Source: Trichoplax sp. H2 (lineage: Eukaryota). From it: 64,000 bases of DNA. Shown here in pieces: positions 1 to 38,100 of the stretch. The translations under genes were made by a program, and so were the position numbers. Positions within the stretch are counted from its first letter, which is position 1, and each line of letters starts with the position of its first letter. The DNA lies in the NCBI GenBank assembly GCA_003344405.1, contig NOWV01000150.1:1-64000 (forward strand), written 5' to 3'. Under the pieces are notes generated by a model. The model saw only the letters and a program-made list of their open reading frames with translations. It did no database searches and was not told the DNA's origin.

Positions 1-5
1 CTAAC

Positions 6-2594
6 CGTAAGAATTGTTCCGCCAGACATTTCTCCAGCTGCAATTAAAGTAGAGCCGTACCAAAATGCTAGAGCATACGATCCAAACATTACGAGAAACG
101 TAAGTGCAATACCGATACCTACAACGAATGATTTTTTGATACCAACGCGCAATGCATGATCTAGTTGACCGTCATAACTGATGGGTATAATAAAAAGTTT
201 AAGAAAAACCTTTAGGTTATTTATAACAGTTTCAAATATATGTCAATTGATATTACAGAAATTACCGCTCGCAGGCCTTTTTCTCTCCTCCGAAAGAAAC
301 TACAGTTCTAACTGACGAAAGTATTTCTTCTGCTACTCCGCCAGCTTTTGAATATGCTTCCAATTCTTTATTAGTGAATGCAGATCCAAACTAAAAAAAG
401 TTTTAAAGATAGAGTTTACTAATATGAAGGCACAGTTAAAAATAATTGATATTTTGGTGATGTAAATTATAATATGGATCTTTACCTTTGACATGAAGGC
501 AGCTACAATAGCTAATAACGGACTTATCGCTATGATTACCAACGTTAATTTCCATCCTCGAACAAATCCCATAGTAAAACCGGCAATACACGCAGCCATC
601 CATTGGCAGTAAGTCGCAGCTTTATCCCCAATACCGTCATGAATTTTGTTGATGTCACTAAGAATGAAATTGAAAATTTATATGATAATGTAATTGAATC
701 TTAAAGATTGTAATATATTCGTTACTAACTCTGATAAACGAGTGATAAGTTCTCCGCTCTTATGTGTATCGAACCAGCCAATATCTTGTCGCATAATAGA
801 CTTGAAGAAGTTGACTCTAATCTGGTAGGTTTGCCTCTCGCTAACTATTACCCACGATGATATCTGTAGGTAGGACACAACTAATACAGCACAGGCCAAG
901 ATTATGAAATATATCATGAAACGATGGACACTATCTTCTAAGCCTTGTGACGCAATGGAAGTGTTTACAGCGGTAATACTAGTATTTGTTGCAGTATTTA
1001 CTAACGAAACATTGCTACATCCTGAGATTGCTGATATATTAATTGCAGCAGGTCCGGATTGGGTAAATGAGATAAAAGAATCTGTCAGGTCGCCGAAGAT
1101 TAACATCATTAACGGCATAGAAGCTCCATTAGCTATACCAAATATGCTTCCAATGACCATAAGAAATTTATCAACTGAACTCGCATATCGGAACTTGTGA
1201 GTATCAAAAATAAATAAAATAATAGTTATGAGACATTGAGAGATAAAGTATAGCGAATTTTGTAACATACCAGTAAAAATCTTAAAAGGTGAAATTCTAA
1301 TGCTTATATCCACATTGCATTTTAAGCTTTAAGTTATAGTTAAATATCACCATGCAAGGAAGATTTAAAAGATTTTATAAATAAGTATCTTACAGTACAA
1401 CGACTGCTTCAACTTTACGCAATATGATATCTAAGGATTCTAATAGGTAAGTAAATCACAGGAACCATAATGATAACGAATTTAGTATTATATGGCACAA
1501 TTATAATGACACATACTTTTTATCACTGTTATTAATAAGGTTGAATGCAGGTGTAATTACGATACTATTACGAATTTTGTTCATGGAGCATTAATATAAT
1601 CAATCAAGTAATGATACTATGCACCGTGTTGGTTGACAATTGCAGTAAATTATATTGTATTTGCACAACCAAACACGTTCTTAAGATGCTATCATTTTAA
1701 TTACCAATTGAAAATATGGCACACTCTTTTCAATAACTTCATCTTCTTTCCTATAATATTATATACTGTCAATCGGTGTCCATTTATATCGTACAGGTTA
1801 GCAGAAATAGCAAATGGAAACAATTGCTAAAATAGCACAAATACTGTAGTACTGTTGCATGTACATGCACTTGATAACAAATTTCTGTTAAATAAGTGGC
1901 AATTTTCGTACCACAGGGCTAGCTATCACCAAGCAAATTTATTGCCAATAAACAAACATTCATGAAATATCATTGTTCGTATTGGAGTAAATTTAGTAGA
2001 TCACAGCTAGGGTTAACAATCGAAATTATTTTAATTTTAACAGTATACTAATTTAACATTCTATCGCTTCGCTGACAGAGATGCTGTATCACAGTTTTAA
2101 TGTGATGATTATTTTTAAGTTTATAGTATGTAAGGAATTTACTGCTTTCAGCCATAGAAAGGATTGCTTGTTTACAGAGACAACTGTCAAGATAGATTCA
2201 CAAATATGCTACAAGTATAAACAGATATAGACATAAAATGTAGTATCCCTGTATTGTCATGATGTTATTAAAAATTACGTTACTGTAAATGATTAAATTA
2301 AATGTTTACTAGCTACAGTGCTCGATAATCATCATTATATGGTCATATCAGAGACACAGGAGTATTGTAGTACGGCATGTTGAATATTCGTATAACAATA
2401 TATTTGACCACTAGTGGGTAGTCAGTGAACAAAACAGTGTATTCATTCCGTACTAACTTGCTTTTCTGGAACCATTTCTTCCTTGGCTTTGCGGCTATAA
2501 AATCTACCTGATTGTGATCTTTGCTACTATCTGTGCCTTGATCATGATTTGCGGCTTCTAAGTCAACGCCTTCTCTCGAAACCGATCGTTGCAT
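6..2594 (-). CDS. ABCB1: ABCB1/MDR1-like (P-glycoprotein) full-transporter gene, 5' part (TMD1); continues beyond the left edge
   Basis: Spliced exons with GT-AG ends: 2594-~2458, 1750-1705, 1193-730, 657-486, 390-266, 177-6. Peptides [12 protein letters not shown]..., [48 protein letters not shown] and [28 protein letters not shown] are typical of ABCB1/4/11 TMD1. Exact paralogue is not resolvable by eye. Confidence 0.9.
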
Positions 2595-5500
2595 GTTCTT
2601 TATTGACTTGCAATTCGCCTGTGCTTATCTTCTGAGGATATTGTTCTTCTTTTTCTAGTACTGTCCAATAAAATGAAATAGGTGCAATCTCAAATTATAA
2701 GGAAATTCAGTTACAGATTAATTACGGCAGATTGACTGGTAGATGCAGTCATTTAAGGTTAGTAATATAAGGAGATTGATAGTTTCAAGGTCTGGCACAA
2801 CGCCAGCGGTACAATGGACGAGAGTGGCTCTGTACTGTACACTATACTACAGTAGAGACCAGTGTACTGCATAAAAATAAACTACAGTTAATTAAGGTTA
2901 ACAAATTTGATCATCAGTTTTGTATCAACTTTGGTGTAGAATACTATCCGCAGCTGGTATAACATTAACAAACACAGAACTGTAAGTAACAGTACAATTT
3001 TCTGCGATCACAAACTATAGTGTGATTTACGTTTTTGAGTTTTTAAGACAGAAGACAAATAACATCATACAGTAAATATGAAAATAAACCATACCATCAT
3101 ATGTTGACTGAATTAATAGTTGCTTATTTATGTAAGTAAAGCACTGAATCACACTGTATGAATATCAGACACTCCTTGAGACTTCGAACGTAACAAGATT
3201 TCATTTTATAAAGTAGGTAATGCGTCTTATATACAGTACAGCACTCGTATATGCTGTAGGCGAGAGACGCGTAGCCATTAGCTAATAAAGTGACCAAGTC
3301 ACATGTAGAGGTGAGATCATACTCGTACTATAGTAGTTACTCCAAAGCTGTGACGATGAAAACGATGTTATATCATCATTGTTCGTCCAATTAAGTTAAT
3401 GATTACTGTATAAGTAATTAATTAAGGCAATTCAGATTTGTTATAAAGTTGTAGTACAGTATACGAGTATTATAGTGCAGTATACCGTGAGCTATCTATT
3501 ATAAGAACTAGGGATTTCTAAAAGCGAAATCCTAATGGTAGTGTATTGCACAAACAAAAACATTGCACTCTGTATGCCAATCTTGTCATGAACGCATATG
3601 AAAATGGCATTACTGTATTTAATTATGCTCATCAATATAAAATCCATTTTACTGCAGCATTACTTTACGCGTTATTTTTGACCTTAACAAATTACACCGT
3701 AGAAGTATAACTATGTAATTAATTACTACCAATATCGCGTTGTATTATATTATACACAGTTATGATGTGATGATTGAAAAGACTTGTATGGTCTACACTA
3801 CCAGAAATTTTGAATAAATACACCGGTTACGTGTAACTTACGTCAAAGAAGTTTGCTAGTTATTTCCTATCAAACTACCATTACATTTCACAAACAATTA
3901 GCAACTCAAGAGCTATTTCTATCACGCAAGGCTTCATAGTCTACACATGTACATGGTATATGGATAGTATCTTGATTAATCGATCAGTTTTTCTCCGTTC
4001 TTCACCGATAGAAATCAAAGTTAACATCGTCATGTGGTACTGCTTATAAAGAAGTTAAGATTCGTACGATTTATACGTGTACTTTACCATAACTATTCGA
4101 GATACTGCGTACATAATTAATTCAATCAATGATTGAAACCATCTTTAAAGGAGTAAAGAGAATAGTAATATGGCGGTATATCATTCCGTCATCGTCAAAA
4201 GTAGCCATAGACCATGATAGCGTTTATGTGTATATCTAACTATTGAGGTGTCAGTTTGATGGATGAACAGTACACCTTATCCCGTCAATGGTGTCAGCCC
4301 ATACTGTACCTTTATTTATTTGCGATGCTGCTCAAAATAAATAGGAATCGGTGAAATTTTCAATGTCGGTGTTGTCTGGATACAGGATAATTCGCGGTGA
4401 TCATACAAACTACAACTATCCAATGTGCAGCTCCTATAGGGTAATTCTGTACTGCCTTCTTACTAGCTGTTACAGTGTTGCCTTGTCATTAGGATAGTTT
4501 AATAAGTACTATAGTAGCTAGTATGGAGAATATCCGTATTTGTAGTGCAAGGTAAGATAAGTAATGCCTTAACGTGGATGTTGTTTGCCAATTTAATTAA
4601 CCTGTATTTATGACTTTGTGATGATTCCAATTGCATGAAAAAATTGGACTGACGTCATTGCCAAATAACTACAATACAGTAAAAAGTAAATTATGTACGT
4701 CATAGTGAAATCAAAAGAGGATTCGTTGTATGACTTAACACTAGAGTTAACGCTGCTGTACTACAGCATAGGGAGTCATATTTTAAAGACTGATTCTTTA
4801 GCACCATGGTACTACTGTACTGTGCAGGACTATTTCAGCGAGGTGTACGATGAATTTAGTGCAAAACAAATGGATAAGTGTGGTATCATTTTTTCTACAG
4901 ACTGTACAATGTACATGTACTAACAGTAAAAGAAAATAGAGAAACGACGAACTTTCAGACTACATAAAATAAAATAAATAAATAATAGAAACGGTAACGA
5001 AAGGAAGTGAATGATTCTATCTGATGCCAACATCAATAGCATACAGTATCGCAAAGACTTTGCACAGTAATTAAAATTTACCAAAGTAACAATACATTTA
5101 TGCGAAATATCGGGACATCTACTAGTGATTAGTACACCATACAACCATACTTCTTTCTTTACTTTAATATTAGTACTTACCCGAGTTAACCCTGAATTAG
5201 AACTATACAGCGCATCCCCAGTGATAACACGCCTTTTTACTATTAACATTATTGATGAAGTCATTAAATCACAATCTGATTCTATTCATCGTTGCCATTG
5301 GCTACGACATTCTCACATTAATGAATTAATTAAATTAGCAGTAAATTAGATAAATCAAGAGAATTAATTAATAAACTTGCTACTTAATAGAAATCTGAGA
5401 AATCACACGACAGTGCTCGGTATTATGATCGTAGTTATTCGCTTCGGAAAAGATTGATTCAGATGCCACTGAGATTTCTATAATCTACTGTATATGTTAT

Positions 5501-7203
5501 TACATAAAAAAACACCACCGGCGTAATACAGTACTCTCCTGGAATTTGGGCAAAGCGTTTTAATTGACTACCTCGGTCTATGCTTCGCTTATTATTACGC
5601 GTGCTATACAGTACTCTACGTTTCTTTTGTGAAGAATAGTGTCATAGTATTCTAGTTCTATTCTGTAACGTAGTGCGACCAAATCACTTATATGCTGCTT
5701 GCTACTCCGTTTATATGCAAAAAGTTTAAAATATATTTTGTTTGAGTTTAGTATATAGCACCGTTTATGTTATTGTTATTGATGATGATTAATACAGTAC
5801 ACCACCAATTTTACGGTCACCATAAAACTACAACCCTTCCGGATAATTTACTAAATCAGTTATTATTGAAGTTTTGCATAGGACACCATACAATATAAGT
5901 GTAACTAGGAAAATCAATAGGATGCTGACATGAGTAGGGTGGCCGAAGAATCGGTGGTGTACTGTATTAGATTGAGCTTAATCATTCAATAGCTAATGTG
6001 ATTAAAGTACTGCATACGAATATGCCTCAATTACAGAGCTAAAGGAGAGCTGCATGGATTTCTGTAAATCCTAAAATGGATTATAGAGATAAAAAAAGTC
6101 TATGGAACCAAACTGAGTATCATCGATTGCTGGCAAGCATAACGCGCACCAGACAATCTGAATACTGTATTATCACTATCAGTCTTCTAATATTTTCTAA
6201 TTATGTTGTGTTGTATCTCGTAATGTCAGCAATAAAATAATGCGAAGGCATTGCAAGTATAATGCAGAGTGAGTATATAACTTATGCAGCGATAGAGGTC
6301 CTGGAAGGTCAGACTACTACTGTAGAATGCGGTTTTGTGTGTTAATAGTAAATAAATAATAGTTCGCTTCGACTTCTTTTGTGATTGATTCAAAATCTCT
6401 TAGGTGCTGTGAATATATTTTCAACTAATTACCTACCAGCTACATAATTTACGGTAACGTATTATCTTAGGTAACGAGTCATAATTTCTTGAACCTTATG
6501 AGAACATCTAATAAATTCTTAGGGTGATAGCACGATAAAAGCATATTTACACTGTAGTAGGTTCATGAGAAGGTTAATCAAAAGGATAAACAGTAATAAT
6601 TATACATAATTAATTTTGTTAACATTTTTTAATTAGCAACAGCATACTTGCAATCTAAAGATAGCCAGTTTAGTATTACTAGTTAATGATAATATGTTGA
6701 CAACGAATAGACTTCAGGGCTCAACACAGCTCACACAAATGCTACTCTGAACAATCGAGATTACATGTTATAAATTAAAGTAAAAAAATCAGGTAAGTCT
6801 AAAGATCTAGTAATAGCAATATAGTAATTTAATATAGCTTAAATTAAAGTAATTGTCTAAACTGCCCTTGCTAATATACTGAATTTATGATAATAACTTC
6901 GCTATTGAAATCTACAAAAAGTAGAATGCATTAATAATTTGTACAGTAGTACAATCTTTCGTTACGAGATTAGCTGCTAAATTTTGATAAAATCTGATAA
7001 ATAGTCTAATAAACCAATCCGTACTACATACACATGAAGAATAAAAATTTTGAGTAAGATGGATTTTAACCGTATTTATACTTGATCGTTTTGAAATGTT
7101 TAATAGCCTTGAAATTCGTACTTTACAAGTTATCAATTATGAATGAACGAGTTGATAAAAGGTGAGCCGCCATTGGATTGTATCGTAGTTTCATTTTACA
7201 CCC

Positions 7204-7637
7204 TTAAACTTGAGTGTTCTGTAATTTAAAGTAAACGCCTTCTTTTGCGATTAATTCATCATGTGTACCGAATTCTATAATCTTCCCTTTTTGAAATACG
7301 GCTATACCATCAGCGTTTCGAATGGTAGATAACCGATGAGCTATGACGATACAAGTACGCCCTTCTCGAGCTTTATCTAAAGCTGCTTGTACTATCTATT
7401 AATTATAATTAATTATGAATAGTTTAAAAACGATATGATAATCTAAAAATATAATAGAGTAAAGTTTATAACGTATAAAATAGTCTTTACCTTTTCACTT
7501 TCAGTATCTAATGCAGATGTGGCTTCGTCTAACAGAAGAATACGCGGCTTCCTAACAAGAGCACGAGCTATAGCAATACGCTGTTTTTGACCACCTGACA
7601 TCTGTGTACCTTTTTCACCTACTAAAGTTTCGTACCT
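7204..7637 (-). CDS. Orphan last two exons of an ABCB full transporter (C-terminal half of NBD2); gene fragment or small spliced gene
   Basis: Exon 7637-7491 (147 nt, ag/gt) = [49 protein letters not shown]. Exon 7395-7204 = [63 protein letters not shown]. Signature, Walker B, D-loop and H-switch are present. No Walker A or TMD exons were found between 7638 and the RAP1GDS1 stop at 9636. Confidence 0.88.
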
Positions 7638-8009
7638 CTAAAATGCAAATATATTGTGCCGAGCAAAATAAATACCATTCTTAATTCCGTTACTCGAAAA
7701 ATGTGACCATACTGCATGCAGAAAATGGAGTACAGTAACGTACAAACTGCAGAATACATTCCAACACAACAACGCCCGTAAGTTACCTTTTCCGATGTTC
7801 CAAAATATGAGAGGTAAAATTTTGATGTCAGCTTTCTATGGAGATAGGATAATTGTGACCACGAGCTACGACTATTTGCAACTCATATATTAGACGTTAA
7901 GGCACTTCTACCTTACCGCTGGGATCCAATTATGAGAAAATATTTGCAATCTCAGCGAATTTAAATTAGTGCCACGATTTAAAAGTGCGCAAAAAAGTCT
8001 AAATGTCAT

Positions 8010-8300
8010 ACTATACTGTATTGTACACTGTACAGTCCAGTGTATAGTGTACTGTACAATACAGCACAGTGCTATACACTGTACACTGTACACTGTACAG
8101 CTCAGTGAAATCATCATCATCTGCCACTGCCATCTTGGTATTTTAAATATGCAACAATATCGCTCTTGATCGAGTGGTCACGGTGTCACGTGCTCATGGC
8201 CACAGGCATGATTCCTCCTTTCTAGTGACCGTAAACTGTTACAACGTCCATAGTACTGTACAGTACTATACTACAGTTACATACTGTACTATATTGTACA
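8010..8300. repeat. ACAGT/ACTGT pentamer-rich array upstream of the orphan ABCB exons
   Basis: tactgtattgtacactgtacagt...gtacactgtacactgtacag (8013-8100) and tagtactgtacagtactatactacag (8251-8300). Confidence 0.75.
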
Positions 8301-9635
8301 GGACTAAATCGGCATGTGGCTTGCTGACATCTGTTCGAGGAGCCCATACTGTGAGTAGACCTGACTAAAGTTCAAATTATGGACCAGTATGGACAATGGA
8401 CAAATGGACATAAGAGCCTGAATGGCGCTGCACTATTCTTCTTTTTTCATTTATTTATTACTGTATTTATACCGTGTTTTCAGTGATACGGACGGAAACG
8501 CGATTGCGTCACTTTTATTAGTTTTTATGTATTGTTTTAGTTAATAAATAAAAATAAAATTAAAGCTTAAACTTGTAATTAACTTTTAACTTCTTTATTA
8601 TGCGCGGTATGGGGCAGGTCTCTTTCTCATAGTCTACTGACAGACTAATTACGTAATATCGCACATGATACAGCACTGGTAAGAATATTATAGGGCACTC
8701 TTATTAAAATACAGTGATAGCAAGGCATCCATAAGCTAAATAAATAAATAAACTACAGAACAATGTTTCGTTAGCACTACAGTAGAGAGTCTTACGGTAA
8801 TTAGCACCTTATTATGTACTGTACTGTACAAAAAAAGGACAGACAGAGATCATGCCAGAGTACAGTACAGTATTGTAAATTTGCAATTAAGCCATGTGGA
8901 GTACTGTACAGTAGCGCTGAAGTGAATAATTACAATAATAATTTGTACAGTACATATTCTGTTTAATCTAGATACATACAGTAAAGTACAAATAATCAGC
9001 ATTACTAATCAAGTGTAGATGATTCTCGTCGACTTTACAATGGCCAAAGAACTTTTAAAAAACGTTAACCTATAAACCTCTAAACTCTACATTGGGCGAA
9101 AATGCCCGGCTACGTGGGTTATGCATATCGAAATTTTTTTGTTTTCAGTAATGTAATAGATATTATTAAACGTTTTGTGCGACGGATTTTGTAGCTAGTT
9201 TTTTAATAATTAAATTAAATGAACACTACAATAACGATAAAGCGATACTGACCCTCACGAAAAGATAACCGGACTAGGGATTTCAATGCGTTATTTTATT
9301 TATTAGTAACGTATATGAGTATCTCATCCATGAAGGAAATTAAATAGATTTAAGCACAATAGTATCCAATAGGTACGCATAAAAAATATAACATGTATCA
9401 TACAAAATAAGATTTTTCAAAACGAATTTTAGCTCAACTTTATAAAGGACAATATTAAGTTTGCTTAGAGTTATTTACAATAAGATGCTTAATTGTTCAG
9501 CTTTGCAGATAAACTTCTAGTATAAGGCAATATCTGGGGCTTATACGAGTACATCACTATGCGATATACTGTACGTCTACCACAAAATAAGTAGTTATTC
9601 ACGATAAAGACAGTATGAAAAGTTAACACATAAAG

Positions 9636-12600
9636 TTACGCATCACCAAGACTACAGTTGTTTACAACATCCTTTGCTTTGGCTTTTACTAATTCACTGT
9701 CATTTTCACGAAGGCAATGAATAGCTTCTTCTACCCCGGCCAATTTCAAATTGGAATGATGTGGTTCAACTTTCCATAACATTTCAATCAAAGATAGCAA
9801 ATTGCAACGTACTTCAGCTATTACATTGCTGTCTTGAACAACTTTCACAACTTCTTTGACAATACCAGCTTCATGTAAGCTCTGATGAAGGCATTCTATG
9901 AGTATTAATAAGTCCATGATTAAGATAATTAAAGCGCTAACAAAAGCACTCGTATACTTATATTAGGACTTGCAATGCTAAGTATACGTAAGAGTAACGT
10001 ATGAATTTCCTTAAGCGAAATTTTCAGATGTTATATCGAACGGTAACAAATCGTAAATTATAAAATGCGGCATTATAATTATTGTGATTACAAGCCTACG
10101 TCACTTTTTCTGCTTTTATACGATAAATTCACAGATTAACATATTGGCAATTCTCAATCTTAGCTACCGTGTTGATATGAATATGAGCATGTACATTGTA
10201 CATAACGTACGTAATTGTAGTATTTTAGTACTTACCGTCAGCCACAGCTGACGTGATCAACAAAGCTACAGCACCCTCATTCTGTAACTGTGTATGCTGG
10301 TTATGCAACATAGAAATTATGTGGTCTATTCCTCCTATTGCAGCAATGTTTGTTATAATATTCTTGTTTTGTGTTTCTTTGATGATACAGGCCAGCAAAC
10401 GTAAAGCTTCGCTTGATACACCTTCGTGTTCTAATACATTACAAAGCTCGACAATACGGGTGAGAATTTCCGTACTAGATCCCAATTGATTGGCGACGGT
10501 ATCTGCGCAATATACAAATGATTTATATCACATAACTACAAATGTGTCGGAGTCACAAAACCAGGTAGAAACTAGAAAGTGTTAAAATACTTCTTCGCTA
10601 GTTTCAATTAAAAAGTAAACTATATAAAGAATTATAACTAAAGCTTATATTACATACCATTCCCAGTAGCTAGTAATCTCAGAATACTTAGCGATTTATA
10701 GATTGTGGGGGAGAATAGAGAGGACAATAACGATGATATCGAGTTGATTGAACCTTCGTTGATTAGTTTTGGTCTAACCGATGAGCAAATTGATAGATTT
10801 TTTATTGCGCTTAAGGCAGCAATCGCCAGTTTAGAATTTCTATCTGTATTTTCTATTGGTTTTACAGCTTCCAGTAAATTAGGGATAATCTCGAAGTCTG
10901 CTAATTTTTCACAATTTGAATCTAGATAATGGAGACGTAATATGATAGATAATGCAATCATAAGTATATCGATGCAGTATTATAATGAAACTGGTAGTAA
11001 TAATCTGTCAAATTCTGAGATTTCGCATTACCTGAACGAGCAATATTTCCAATTCCAAGGCAAGCGGCGGCTTTCAGATTTACCCTCTTATCTCTTAGCC
11101 ATCCCAGTAGAATAGGTACAATTTTGCCTGTTCCATTATTAAACATAATTTTCATGCTGTAGTTACCGCCTAGTAAGTGAACTATAATAGCCACTACATT
11201 ATCAATTGTTTCTTCATCTGTATCATCATCATTAACAATCTGTTCTATTTTCGAAATCATATTGTTAATACGCTCATCTTCTGAGATCTGCCTCTGAAAG
11301 TCGTCTGTAATCAATTGAAAACTTAAATAAGTAAAAAATTTTTCAGATGCATCTACGTATATTCTTGCTAACATGAAGATCATAATATCTGATTTCAGTT
11401 GGAGTATGAAGCGAAACGATGAACTTTATTACTAATTAATGTATTATCATTACTATCTGTTAGCAATGGCTATTACATACCGTCTTCAATGAATTCCATA
11501 ATTGTTTCGATTACTGATTCTTGAATAGCGTGATATTGACAGTCGCATAATAGAAACAGTAATAAATTTCCGGCATTATGTGCTATCATTTCTTTAATGC
11601 CTAGGTAACAAAACAAATAGACGTAACTATAGATATATCTTGGAAAGACATATTCACATTAAGTAAATGCCTTAAAGCAGGGCAATTACTGCTTGTATAT
11701 TGAGTCAAGACAATAAGAGGAAAACACGACCTTTAATGCCAATGATCGTTAATAATGAAAGAGCGCCACTGATTACTTTGCTATCATTTATTGACCGGAT
11801 GCAGTCAAGTAATGTTGATATAATACCAGCGGATAACACTAGGGTTTGATTTTCATCTATTAAAAGTATATTAATATAAAAGCGATTATTACAACTATCA
11901 TAATCAGCTTATAAGGTCTACAATACGTAAATTTTCTATATAAATTTTCTTAAACGCCCTTAAGCAAATTTATAATGGCGAGAAATAAATGCAAGAGGGG
12001 GATCATTAATACATACCACAGTCATTAATATAATTGAGAAGGCAGCCCAGTGAAACTTGCAACATATTAATGTTAGGCTTTGCAGTGCTACTTGAAACTA
12101 TCGAAATCAACTTTTCCGTAGCGCCATTACTAGCGATACATTGCCTACCAGTAGCTAATGATATATTAAAATGTTTTTAAAGTGTAACGATCTGTCAGTG
12201 ACGTAACAACTGCAAATATAGGTTAAAAGTTGTATGATGTACGATTAACAAGATATCAATACAATGGTATCCTACGGCAGTTTTGATATATTCGAGACAT
12301 TGAAGTTTTCAATTTAATTATAACTGTAGTGCATTATTACTTATAGACTTACGCGATTCGTAACATAAATTGCCTAAGGCACGCAGGCTTTGGTAGCAGT
12401 TTTTCTCGTCATCTGATTCGACTAGGCCAATTAATGAAGGAACAACCTGGACCTTTGCTATTCTATTTCGCCACTCATCGTGCTTGCAACACTCTGCAAT
12501 AAGCTGTGCTAGCTGTCCATGAGAACTTCTATAGTCGATATCTTTGAGATAAGCTGCGATTTTGAATTCAATACCAGAACTGAGCATTTGCTCGGCAGCT

Positions 12601-13493
12601 AATTCTGCAAAATGCATTAGTAAGTATTAGAAGAATAGCGCTAGGTAGGAGTAGAAGTCATTTTAGTGTATTCATACTTTAGCAGTCGACTAAAACATTC
12701 TTCTTATTGTTGTCGTAACATCACCTGTCCTGTAAACTACTGCTTGTTACCTTGTAGTGTACGCGCCAAAGAACGTGGGGAATCCTAGATATCGTACAAT
12801 ACTATTTACGGCTTATCTACATGCTACAAATGTTCACGTACATTAGGATATGGTATTAAAGTTATGTTCCTACTAGAGCTGATTTGTTTTCACAGTTCTC
12901 ATGTCTCGTTAACGTGTGTATGATATCGCGCTTGACGTAGGCTTCCAAATAAAGTAAACTAAAGGAAAGGAAAGCTTAAAATCTCAGATTCTTGATCTCG
13001 TTACAATTGTGATAGTACATTAGCAAGCATAATGATCGTTACAGGGTCCTGCTGCACAGTAATAAGTGCTTAAACCTTTCAGATTTGGTTTACGATTACA
13101 GATATAAGGTTAATATATGCTAATGATAGAAGTGCGTTATTTCATTGAACGTGATATGTACGGTAATAACCATCAGTAAGCACATATACTCATGCTTGAA
13201 GTCGTAAATACATTAATCGCCTACAAATAGAAATTAATTTATCTGATATGTGCAAATATGCACTGTGCACAAGTGAATAACATATATCAATTGGAGATCT
13301 TTCATAGCTGCATGGAGTATAATGTGAACAATACTAAAATCGACAGCATAGCATCTATCAGCATCATAAATCCGATACTATGAACTAGGCTTACCGTTAT
13401 TTTGCAAATCTGATAATATGGATGTTATTACTTCGTGAAGGTCTTCCTTTGAACATTGTTCAAATCGTGCGATGTCAGTATTGAAATCTGCCA
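9636..13493 (-). CDS. RAP1GDS1: SmgGDS / Rap1 GTPase-GDP dissociation stimulator 1 (armadillo-repeat GEF/chaperone); start-codon exon not located
   Basis: ARM-repeat exons: LAQLIAECCKHDEWR...YQSLRALGNLCYES (human GRALGNICYDS), AAACLGIGNIARS, AALSAIKNLSI, EGVSSEALRLLACIIK, HIISMLHNQHTQLQNEGAVAL, EVRCNLLSLI. About 9 coding exons, stop at 9636. The most 5' coding exon seen is 13493/13487-13395. Confidence 0.85.
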
Positions 13494-14429
13494 CTTCATT
13501 AAGGTAGATTAAATAGCACAAATAAGATATTGGAACGCTTTAAAGATTTTTTGAAATAAGCTGTAGTTATAAATACTAGCTAATTTCAGCGAAGAGTATG
13601 CAATTACAAGATCCTATAATTACGAGCATATAGCTTCAGAACAATGATCATCGTTCAATGCAGGATATATAGTAATCTATCAAGGCTACGAAAATCATAT
13701 CTATGTAGTATGCAGACATATATTGCTATATTGTATGGTAAGCTGTATTAATTATATCATGCTCTCAGCTAGCATGATAGCAAAGAAATCTTTATCAGGC
13801 CGGTAGGCAATGCTGAGATTTTTGCCTCTGCACTTTCGTAATCTTTTTACGATTTAAATTCGCTCTGTATACTGTAGAGTATTCCTATCAAAATTGATTC
13901 TAACTTGCAGTACACGCTATGTTGTATCACTAAGGACGTAGACTAAAATACTGTGTAGTATTAATAATATAGTACATGTAGGCTTTCATAATAATACGTG
14001 CATATTGAAGATATATGCACATCAAAGCAAAGTTGTTATGGCTTTCGGATCAATTGTACATATACCGAATTATTTTGGAAGTTTACTTATCGCTTACTTC
14101 AGTATGGAATTTTGTTACAATTGATAGAATCGGCTACCGCAGCTTGCATACGCAATGAATAGAATTGGGTTGGAATCAGTTGAAGACTCTGAAGATATGA
14201 AATAGGAATCGCATGCGTACAGTAATAGTGTAAAAAGATCTCACAAGGTTTATGATTGATTTGGGAAAGGGAATAGAATTTTTTGTTGCAAAAATGAATC
14301 CAATTTATTTACGATAGCCAATTAATTTAGGGTCAAATGCTTGAATGGAATTGGAAAACTAGCCTAGTGCTAACAGTAATCTTAATGAACATGATAGATA
14401 TCATACCACACTTACTGGTCTAAACTACG

Positions 14430-15150
14430 GTAGTACAGTACTGTATAAATATTTTCAGAGAATTCTGTACAGTACAGTACGGTACAGTACAATGTACTGT
14501 ACTATGCACTGATTACGTCGCCTAGTAAAGATCTCTGCGCAAACGCAGTTAGTGCAAAAATCTACAGTATGCAGCATGCACTACAGTACTGTACAGTAAA
14601 GTACTGTACGGTATACTGTTGTACAGTACAGTACAGTACAGTACAGCACAGTACTAATACTGTAGAACTGTACCAGTACTGATAATGTGCAAAGACGAAA
14701 GGCTGTTGTGGACGAAATGGCGAAAGGATCCAAAGATAAAATGAAAAAAAAGAAGAAATTAGAGGAACGAGAAATTGTGAAGAAGCTTAAAAAGCAGGTT
14801 GATTGTAAATTGATTTATAATAGTCGAATTAAGTCATGTGAGGTATATTGNNNNNNNNNNNNNNNNNNNNGGTCAAATGCTTGAATGGAATTGGAAAACT
14901 AGCCTAGTGCTAACAGTAATCTTAATGAACATGATAGATATCATACCACACTTACTGGTCTAAACTACGGTAGTATAAATATTTTCAGAGAATTCTGTAC
15001 AGTACAGTACAGTACAGTACAGTACAGTACAGTACAATGTACTATGCACTTATTACGTCGCCTAGTAAAGATCTCTGCGCAAACGCAGCTAGTGCAAAAA
15101 TCTACAGTATGCAGCATGCGCTACAGTACAGTACAGTACTGTATACTGTA
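14430..15150. repeat. ACAGT/ACTGT arrays in the divergent RAP1GDS1/LARP7 promoter (present in both duplicate copies)
   Basis: (gtaca)n runs at 14457-14500, 14581-14680, 14997-15040 and 15121-15150. Confidence 0.85.
14851..14870. other. Assembly gap (20 N)
   Basis: Run of n characters. Confidence 1.
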
Positions 15151-15350
15151 GGGTGTCTCGTAAAAAATTACCGACGATTGAAATCATATGAAAACACAAT
15201 TTCAACACCAAATTAGACAAATTTGGTATCAGTCTATTACAAATAAGATGCTATATGTATATATATAATTTAAATTTATATAAAACGTGCTAAAGCTACT
15301 AATATTAGCACTTAAAGTCAAAAGTATTTATATAAATTCTGGCGTTTTTC
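15151..15350. mobile_element. Insertion present in only one duplicate copy; left end resembles a Tc1/mariner-type MITE terminus
   Basis: Absent from copy 1. Begins TA|GGGTGTCTCGTAAAAAATT and has internal inverted repeats (gtgctaa/ttagcac; aatttatataaa/tttatataaatt). No matching right TIR seen. Confidence 0.4.
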
Positions 15351-35184: not shown

Positions 35185-38100
35185 TTAAGATTTATCTCTT
35201 CTACGGTCAGGAGATAAACGTCTTCTGTCGCGATAATTAAAGTCATCCCTTCGTTTTCTTCGAGGTGACACGCTGCGGCTTCTACTGAAAATATAATAAA
35301 TGGTCATAAACAATCTTAATAATAGTCAAGTATTGGAAACAAATAATTCGAGGACATGTATAGATAGTTGGCTTATCGTGTCATAGTAATGAGTTTTTTA
35401 CAGCTGAATTACCGTTCATTCTTTTGCTCGTAGTATCCACCTTTCTTTCTTGCAGCATTAGCTATGTAATCAACAGATTAACCTTTAAGTGAATAGTATA
35501 TTATCAAATCTATAGGTGGATCAAAGAAAATACTGTTCCTACCTGAGTCTTCAGAGCTACCGCTAGACGAAGATGTCGATTCCGAACTCGAATCAGAATC
35601 TGAGTCTGAATCTGAATTGGAATCTGATGAACTACTGTCATCACTTGATTCAACAGCTCTTTTTTGAGCCATTATTAGCTTCGGAGCGTTCTTTAAGTGT
35701 GCTCTTAACTCATCACTGATTTATAAAACGTATGCAAATAGTTGTTATTAATTACGATATTAAAAGCATAAGAGTTGATATTTTACAGCTATTAATAGGC
35801 TTACGTTAATGCACCAAGGCCAATTGAGGTAAAGAAATTGATAGCAAATCTAGTATAACTTGGATTATTTCGTGGAAACAAGCCTTCAAAAAATTCAGCT
35901 AGTGTCCTAAAGCGGATTAATACGATAAATTGTATAAAATGCATAATACCAATTGCGAAATTTTATAATTGTATTAGGGTAATAATCGGTAACATTACTT
36001 ACTCATCTCTGAAACGCTTATTTAATTTCATGATACCCATGTATTCAGATAATTCTTGCAATAAAATCTTTGCAAATATTCGACTACAGTTGAGTATAAG
36101 TAACGATTTTAGCGAAAGTATAATAGCGAAAAGATACTCAGAATATGGCTTACCTTGATGATGTAGTTTCGTCTTCATTTAGATGAATGCAGGACAAAGC
36201 CTTTGATTATAATATTAGTAATTATGATATCGTATTTTCACATTTAGTATCAATGTTACTTTCAAAATAATAATTCTTACCGTCCAAGGAATAGCATCCG
36301 TAAAAAATAGATGTGCAAAAAACTTTACCACATTTCGCAATTTATTAGTTTCCAACCTATGGCAATTTTCGTACTAAAATAAGAGAGTACCGTAAATAAT
36401 TGAATTGATTCGTTGATAAACAAGTACAGCTAACATATAATAGCAATTTGATTCTAACTTGGTCTTGGAATATCTCGTCGTATAGTTCAACATAGGTTTT
36501 GTTTAACTGACAAAATCTCTGAATCAAAAATATTTTATAAAAATCACGTTAATAAATGTAAAAGGTTTTCTTTAAAAGCAAGACTTCTCTTACTTGTGCT
36601 AGTAAGCCGTACATCCTGAGATACGAACGCTCCTGGGCACAGCAGTCTATAATCATACTGCATAGTTCTTTCTAGAATTGACACAAGGTCATTTTTAGTC
36701 GCATAGGCATTATCCTTATTTGCGAAAAATTAATTAAATAGTTTAACCTCCTGCCCCGGTTTTATCTCCATTTTCAATAATTTATGAGCACATTCTTCGA
36801 AATCCAAACTAAATTAGAAAAGTAAAATCACTTAAAATTTTGAATTATTACCTTCACAGAAATAATTTCTACCTGGACTGTATGGTAAGATAAATATTCC
36901 TCCTTAAAGCCACCAAGTTTGTCTCGGTCTGATCCAAAATCATCTTATCATCTACGTATTTATTCATTTATAAAATTTATCTAATAAATGTACTAAAAAT
37001 TGCAAATGAATCACATTACGAAGACGTAATAGTACCTTTTTCTTCTTCTTCATCATCGTCATCATCATCGTCCGATTCCTCGTCGCTTCCACTAGCGGAC
37101 GATCCATCATCGTCATCACCTAGTATACCTAATTTTAAAGCAACACGAACATGAGAGTATGCTACTACAATTCACGGCAGCTTCACGGTTGCTTATTAAG
37201 CTTACCTTTTCGTAATACCTGATACCGTTCTTCATTCTGTAAATAGTCTGGATCAAACTTGAAAATATCTAAGAAATGCAAAACCGCGCTTAATAAAACT
37301 TTATATCTATATCATAGCTTTATCTTCTCGCAATTGCCAATATACTTAGTATATTTTCTCCATCAGCGGCGTCATCGAGAGATAGAAAATGTGTGATTTG
37401 ATCGGACTCTTCAACTAATACCAGCTCTTCAATTACAGTTGGATAATCCTATTGATGTATGATACGGTCTTTAAAACATAACTTCAGTAGCAGTAGTTAC
37501 AGAGAGAAAGTTAGAGTACCTTAAAATCGTCTTTCCTAATGGCAAATAGCACTTCTATCATATATTGGACGCGTTTTCCTATATCACTGTCTTGGATAAT
37601 ACTTCTAAAGCGATCGAAAATTCCTACAGATGTTCAATAAAATTACTGTTACCTACTGAAAATTCTATAAATTTGTCAATTAATATCTTTTTGATATAAA
37701 TTACCTCTAATTCCTGTTGGCGATAGTTCACCCAACTTTTTTCCACATTCCTTAATAACACCAACCTAGTATTCATAATGAGATCAGGATAACGTTATCT
37801 GTCAAGATGATTTTAAGAATTTTAACAAATCCAGATACTTACAGCAACTTCAACACTATCTTCGGTTGGATTTTCTAAAAATACAGTCAGTATCTCGAGG
37901 ATAACCAATTCATGAATCTTATCATGACAGAAAATAGCAATTATGTTATCGATAAATCAATTAACGGTCAATTTCACAATCATTCCGATACGGTTAACAT
38001 AATTGACACGATATTAACACTTACAACTTGTTGGTTAACCAAATGCGCTAAAAATTTAGCAGTTGTAAGACATGTGGCTTTATCGCCTCTTTTCATTGTT

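Follow-up and report, generated by a model that had tools for sequence, protein, structure and literature searches.

The stretch of DNA analysed here, hereafter the window, comprises the first 64,000 nucleotides of contig NOWV01000150.1 of Trichoplax sp. H2. On its minus strand, between an armadillo-repeat gene and the 5′ part of an ABCB gene, the sequence and its splice dinucleotides define a fragment of two exons and one 95-nt GT-AG intron (Table 1). Exons A and B together hold 112 codons, that is 336 coding nucleotides and a stop (339 nt), and encode the final 112 residues of an ABCB nucleotide-binding domain (NBD). Exon A matches positions 100-137 of the 137 positions of Pfam ABC_tran (PF00005) with an E value of 8.5e-13, and exon B is the last exon in an ABCB domain of the NBD2 type. 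A preliminary description of this DNA had reported the two terminal exons of an ABCB transporter, intact over 339 nt and bounded by canonical splice sites, and its coordinates, reading frame and GT/AG dinucleotides were all reproduced. The two-exon ABCB fragment is thereby confirmed as real and far above chance.

Table 1. Features of the locus, in nucleotide positions of the window.
Feature	Position	Strand	Details
Neighbouring ABCB gene, 5′ part (P0121)	3..2594	-	373 aa, TMD1/ABC_membrane only; tblastn and model match
P0121 exons	2594-2457, about 1752-1705, 1193-486 (one small intron inside), 390-265, 176-3	-	
Exon B	7395-7207, TAA 7206-7204	-	63 codons, from a 24-residue stretch to ...KLQNTQV; H-switch AHRL
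Intron	7490-7396	-	95 nt, GT...AG, GC 16%; acceptor AG 7397-7396; phase 0 between ...TESEK and IVQAAL...
Exon A	7637-7491	-	49 codons, from a 17-residue stretch to ...TESEK; acceptor AG 7639-7638, donor GT 7490-7489
Motifs of exon A	7491..7637	-	ABC signature MSGGQ, Walker B ILLLDEA, D-loop SALD
First CDS segment of P0123	7491..7601	-	Begins at the Met of MSGGQ; rest in 7395-7204
Candidate 49-nt cassette (ccatag/...AAG/gtaact)	7787..7835	-	String present
Candidate donor CCAGCG/GTAAGG	7917/7916	-	String present
Candidate upstream ORF	8120-7917	-	68 codons, partly ACAGT translation (CTVYSVQ..., TVQCTIQYS)
ACAGT/ACTGT array, imperfect	7979-8131	.	One of 11 dense arrays; second short array 8252-8305
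CACGTG E-box	8187-8192	.	5 in window against 7.29 expected; at least 5 in 78 of 100 shuffles
Armadillo-repeat gene, 3′ part (RAP1GDS1-like on a weak match)	9636..12626	-	Last ORF 9636-9962; 5′ limit is the last ORF with an ARM match

The fragment lies on the same strand as both of its neighbours. The gene upstream, whose stop is 2.0 kb from the fragment, has Arm/ARM matches in its ORFs at 10653-10979 and 12321-12626 and a HEAT match at 10961-11425. It had been described as RAP1GDS1 with a stop at 9636; its last ORF does end at that position, but the identification is less firm, with the RAP1GDS1 structure 5xgc_A matching one exon weakly (E 3.5e-6) and the last exon giving no PDB match. On the other side, the ATG of the neighbouring ABCB gene is 4610 nt from the fragment, in agreement with the distance of about 4.6 kb, on the same strand, given earlier for an ABCB1-like ATG. 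In this spacer, a 121-codon stop-to-stop ORF at 4923-5285 on the minus strand has no Pfam match.

Although its contig measures 187,199 bp, the public model P0121 of the neighbouring ABCB gene stops at base 3, with the final complete codon that the window can supply. The start of the window is probably a scaffold end that cuts this gene, and the public P0121 "protein" is a truncated model, probably owing to that end. With the scaffold probably ending inside the neighbouring ABCB gene, the last exons of that gene therefore cannot be seen for comparison here. In searches with the N-terminal exon of P0121, 2 of 547 candidates passed, namely its own truncated model and one plant protein, and among 1.84 billion representatives P0121 had no relative above 50% identity, the best other representative reaching 39-50%. 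It was also observed that no T. adhaerens protein matched the N-terminal part of P0121, despite the reported 99.1% identity of H1 and H2; either the H1 annotation is without the 5′ part of the gene or the match is hidden by clustering.

The preliminary description had noted that the fragment can be read as a 100-aa protein from MSGGQ, and a script comparison of the translation identified this reading as a gene model that is already deposited. The model, P0123 ("Multidrug resistance protein 1 [Trichoplax sp. H2]", 100 aa), is 100% identical to the translation of 7601-7491 joined to 7395-7204. It was recovered by a search among proteins of 34-111 aa, is present in ncbi, nr and eukprot, and lies on the same contig as P0121. 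Genes in H2 were called with Maker, for which the genome report names both transcripts and protein sets as evidence (PMC6057997). Because protein sets were accepted, P0123 requires no transcript and its existence is no proof of transcription.

The signature, Walker B, D-loop and H-switch are the motif names in general use for ABC NBDs, and all four are kept in the fragment when it is compared with the C-terminal NBD halves of ABCB1 and ABCB4 (7niu_A, 6q81_A and 4m1m_A). Residues 1-99 of P0123 align without gaps to residues 533-631 (NBD1) and 1175-1273 (NBD2) of ABCB4 (PDB 7niu_A), with 145.7 and 148.4 bits for the two ABCB4 NBDs. The signature MSGGQ aligns to LSGGQ of ABCB4, with Met at that position in 16 of 295 ABCB NBD halves. 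A 12-residue string covering Walker B with its catalytic Glu and the D-loop is identical to ABCB4, as is IAHRLST of the H-switch. Exon A begins downstream of Walker A (the P-loop), and neither Walker A nor the Q-loop, both of which belong to a complete PF00005 domain, was found by tblastn or profile search. The preliminary description had likewise listed the first four motifs as present and Walker A and the Q-loop as absent, and on this the ABCB4 alignment, the profile search and the column conservation agree. Full ABCB transporters have roughly 1,250-1,300 residues in a TMD-NBD-TMD-NBD order, whereas the fragment has 112, and anywhere upstream of it in the window (7638-64000) there is no Walker A, Q-loop, TMD (PF00664) or second NBD. 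With Walker A, the Q-loop and both TMDs missing, the product is therefore not expected to bind or hydrolyse ATP alone, nor to transport.

The fragment is up to 79% identical to NBD halves of vertebrate ABCB proteins, and its average identity over the 295 sequences is 66% to NBD1 and 68% to NBD2 halves. Exon B was also compared with longer proteins, in a ranking that favours proteins with two NBDs over those with a single match; among the best 120 of 7959 matches only vertebrate-type ABCB1/4 appeared, at 69-77% identity, and no placozoan full-length protein that could be the parent copy. The native stop soon after ...QV, a 12-residue string in the fragment and these best matches all point to an NBD2-type terminal exon. 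The parent was likewise sought among 11 proteins drawn from the match list of the neighbouring ABCB gene, none of which was closely related to the fragment.

Nearest in sequence are two unnamed ORFs of exon size on short public contigs, P0124 (71 aa) and P0125 (63 aa), which are 86% and 83% identical to exon B, respectively. Both are the same as exon B across the core from VQAALDK to GIAVF, and share its exon start and its C-terminal ...QV end (as ...SSQV). P0124 differs from exon B by 9 substitutions and P0125 by 9 or more, in the variable tail; the 9 differences of P0124 all fall in this C-terminal part and are mostly conservative. Judged by these alignments, P0124 and P0125 most likely belong to the ABCB lineage of the fragment, either as its counterparts in related genomes or as paralogues. 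Intron-derived residues stand immediately before [IVT]VQ[AE]ALDK in P0124, P0128 and P0129, which marks the same exon start as in exon B. The intron of the fragment is thus kept at a position used by the ABCB terminal exons of other animals, and for this reason the origin of the fragment is placed at the DNA level and not in retroposition; a processed pseudogene is ruled out by the retained 95-nt GT-AG intron. Among the matches of 34-111 aa no conserved stand-alone small homologue was seen, the short matches being exon-sized ORFs on short contigs. A literature search for placozoan ABCB or P-glycoprotein studies gave nothing relevant, and the supplements of PMC10580291 and PMC6057997, as far as they were accessible, contained no matching gene names.

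We then considered whether other pieces of an ABCB gene accompany the fragment. Tblastn of a full-length ABCB4 (P0067) against the whole 64 kb gave matches only at 7156-7637 and 3-1193, the latter, in the separate neighbouring gene, being the only TMD match, and relaxed tblastn of nine full-length ABCBs on 2600-9700 returned nothing but noise. A profile of the N-terminal half of the NBD (120 sequences, 164 positions) was run against 4692 ORFs of the window; its best match was at 36031-36108 with an E value of 0.9, and 7638-9636 yielded nothing better than E 53. By tblastn and profile, no ABC-like sequence is found in 7638-9636 or in 2595-7203. The earlier statement that no parent gene body lies between the fragment and the stop at 9636 therefore holds, and the same negative result from both methods extends to the remainder of 7638-64000. 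We conclude that the ABCB fragment is truly orphan within the 64-kb window.

Several candidates were set aside in the course of these searches. Weak collinear tblastn matches to the Walker A/Q-loop region of NBD2, at 9584-9537 and 9462-9385 on the minus strand (E about 1, from 3 of 9 queries), were judged to be noise and were not reproduced by the profile; the span that they cover, 9385-9584, sits just downstream of the stop of the upstream gene. Capture by a transposon was rejected, as no transposase, reverse transcriptase or helicase domain occurs in the 56 ORFs between 2346 and 16848 and no terminal repeats frame the fragment. Comparison of the region upstream of the fragment with the promoter region of the neighbouring ABCB gene gave only microsatellite matches and one weak match of 68% over 100 nt (7803-7889 against 4339-4438). 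A deleted tandem copy that kept its own promoter is not supported, the flanks sharing no extended similarity beyond microsatellites. RNA genes were also sought, and neither an Rfam family nor a tRNA was found.

The retained part of the domain has no sign of decay. Relative to 295 distinct C-terminal NBD halves, a reference set biased to vertebrates and to similarity with the query, none of the 37 near-invariant columns (at least 95% conserved) is changed in the fragment, and of 54 columns conserved to at least 80% the only one changed is the L-to-M substitution in the signature. In simulations of unconstrained substitution, the chance of retaining an open frame together with all 37 columns was 0.42 at 1% divergence, 0.17 at 2%, 0.067 at 3%, 0.027 at 4% and 0.013 at 5%. 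The simulations ignored indels and splice sites, and the bound that they place on divergence is therefore conservative. Under this model, the fragment would have diverged without constraint by at most about 3-4%, as would suit a young relic. For scale, the genome report puts the difference between the H1 and H2 genomes at 0.9% (PMC6057997). The conservation pattern suggests that the ABCB lineage of the fragment was under constraint until very recently at least.

In the preliminary description, the fragment was also given candidate upstream exons and a promoter-like array of its own. The strings on which the exons were based do exist, but as exons they are not supported. Pfam returned no family for the ORF at 7908-8177 and none for the ORFs over the 49-nt cassette; the 68-codon ORF is derived from microsatellite sequence, and both it and the cassette are absent from the public CDS of P0123. 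That ORF is open largely because all six reading frames of an ACAGT repeat are free of stop codons. The 64-kb window has 424 copies of ACAGT/ACTGT, against about 133 expected from base composition, with 11 dense arrays, including one at 8809-8917. In T. adhaerens, ACAGT is reported to be the dominant microsatellite and to sit mainly upstream of genes, at no more than 1 kb in 54% of cases and no more than 5 kb in 85% (PMC2871265). This published tendency lends the promoter idea a little general support. The array at 7979-8131, however, is intergenic between two same-strand genes and stands equally upstream of the neighbouring ABCB gene. With a motif that is dominant genome-wide, 11 dense arrays in the window and an E-box at its chance frequency, the proposal of a promoter belonging to the fragment is not upheld. 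We conclude that the donor, cassette, ORF, ACAGT arrays and CACGTG are present as strings and are not more than expected by chance.

Two further observations concern these repeats. A short ACAGT-type array at 2809-2874 lies about 215-280 nt upstream of the ATG of the neighbouring ABCB gene, which fits the published gene-upstream tendency. ACAGT arrays (7908-8177, 8801-8929 and others) also give rise to long false ORFs in which C, T, V, Q, Y and S abound, and anyone predicting genes in placozoan DNA should be wary of such stop-free pseudo-ORFs.

Taking these results together, we lean, with slightly better than even confidence, toward the fragment being a real, young and non-functional relic of an ABCB gene, left by truncated duplication or by deletion. 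The piece would derive from a full transporter of the ABCB1/4 type, of which it keeps the last two exons, the intervening intron and the native stop. A DNA-level event would have left this piece between the RAP1GDS1-like gene and the neighbouring ABCB gene, either through partial tandem duplication of a 3′ end or through deletion of the body of an upstream tandem ABCB copy. An ABCB paralogue on the same strand 4.6 kb downstream is the usual setting for relics of unequal crossover. Since no parent copy was retrieved, the duplication is one that we infer and do not demonstrate. The fragment would not yet have decayed, being either young or homogenised by its neighbour, and Maker, working through protein homology, would have built the 100-aa model from the first in-frame Met, that of MSGGQ. 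Further points count against such a relic: perfect preservation is equally expected of a functional exon pair, the flanks of the fragment and of its neighbour share only microsatellites, and the arrangement itself may be wrong, given the likely scaffold break in a short-read, reference-guided assembly.

The latter point leads to an explanation that we regard as unlikely on balance but give serious weight, in which the fragment is the genuine 3′ terminus of an entire ABCB gene (the neighbour itself or a tandem paralogue nearly identical to it) whose body has been collapsed, skipped or placed elsewhere, possibly with a chimeric join at an ACAGT array. As described in the genome report, the H2 assembly was built with MaSuRCA from paired reads of 150 bp (insert 500 bp) and then extended with reference-guided AlignGraph, to give 1,128 scaffolds with an N50 of 376 kb (PMC6057997). 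Since P0121 extends to the final complete codon available in the window, the scaffold probably breaks inside an ABCB gene. At 342 nt upstream of exon A there are ACAGT arrays about 150 nt long, and the window's single gap (20 N, 14851-14870) falls between arrays at 14397-14727 and 14925-15203, which suggests that ACAGT microsatellites interrupt or mislead an assembly made from short reads. Exons preserved in full are, moreover, to be expected of a live gene. The truncated neighbour together with the short-read, reference-guided assembly therefore adds weight to this explanation. Against it, no N interrupts the contiguous DNA between the fragment and the RAP1GDS1-like gene, and reads could span the arrays, which are imperfect and do not exceed a read in length. 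A simple tandem collapse alone would also not be expected to join unique upstream DNA to the penultimate intron.

Explanations that give the exons a present use are far less probable. It is improbable that they form a functional small gene, a half-NBD of 100-112 aa that is expressed alone or as a 180-aa chimera and influences ABCB transporters, for example by acting as a decoy or regulator for a partner NBD to which it offers its signature motif. Such a gene would agree with the annotation as P0123, with the intact splice sites and with the retention of all conserved motif residues; the reported position of most ACAGT motifs upstream of genes in T. adhaerens (PMC2871265) and the existence in humans of transcribed, regulatory ABC pseudogenes (PMC2329642) are also in keeping with it. 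However, a domain in which the N-terminal strands of the RecA-like core are missing along with Walker A and the Q-loop would be unlikely, from known NBD architecture, to fold stably on its own. The upstream ORF that would supply the chimera is translated microsatellite with no family match, the ACAGT arrays and E-box are not specific to the locus, the array lies just as much upstream of the neighbouring ABCB gene, and the search at 34-111 aa revealed no conserved small homologue standing alone. We see a slimmer chance still that selection has kept the half-NBD, as an expressed protein of 100-112 aa or as a spliced module, for a trans-acting role as modulator or decoy of P-glycoprotein-type pumps. 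It is equally hard to credit that the NBDs of full ABCB transporters would be offered the signature, D-loop and H-switch of a piece so kept, an arrangement compatible with the 37 of 37 near-invariant positions kept and with the gene model. Least probable of all is the use of the exons by another transcription unit, as 3′ exons of a read-through from the RAP1GDS1-like gene or trans-spliced or scrambled onto the mRNA of the neighbouring ABCB gene. The shared strand of all three, the distances of 2.0 kb from the upstream stop and 4.6 kb to the neighbour ATG, and a good acceptor at exon A would permit this, but the last coding ORF of the upstream gene stops at 9636, which would leave the downstream exons untranslated, and joining to the neighbour would mean that the 3′ end of that gene came from exons lying 5′ of its own ATG. 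Among the options raised in the preliminary description, recent duplication remnant and misassembly thus remain the leading explanations, and a decoy or regulatory mini-NBD and trans-splicing are not supported.

Read as a relic, the locus carries little weight for biology and some for annotation. P0123 is a gene fragment and should not count as a transporter in ABC inventories of the H2 proteome. It would gain interest, as a natural half-NBD modulator in an early-branching animal, only if it proved to be both expressed and selected for.

As a genomic object, the fragment belongs with the duplicated partial ABC pseudogenes: it holds only the last 112 codons of its gene, and an ABCB paralogue starts 4.6 kb downstream. 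The ABCC6 pseudogenes of this kind are 5′ fragments that carry a promoter, whereas the Trichoplax piece is a 3′ fragment without a demonstrable promoter and without a disabling mutation in the part that it retains. In the human catalogue as described, 22 ABC pseudogenes are listed, of which 10 are transcribed and some are regulatory (PMC2329642). Members of the ABCC6P1/ABCC6P2 class resemble the fragment in being truncated copies near a paralogue with a DNA-level origin, and they can be annotated or transcribed (PMC2329642); the Trichoplax fragment has likewise been picked up by annotation.
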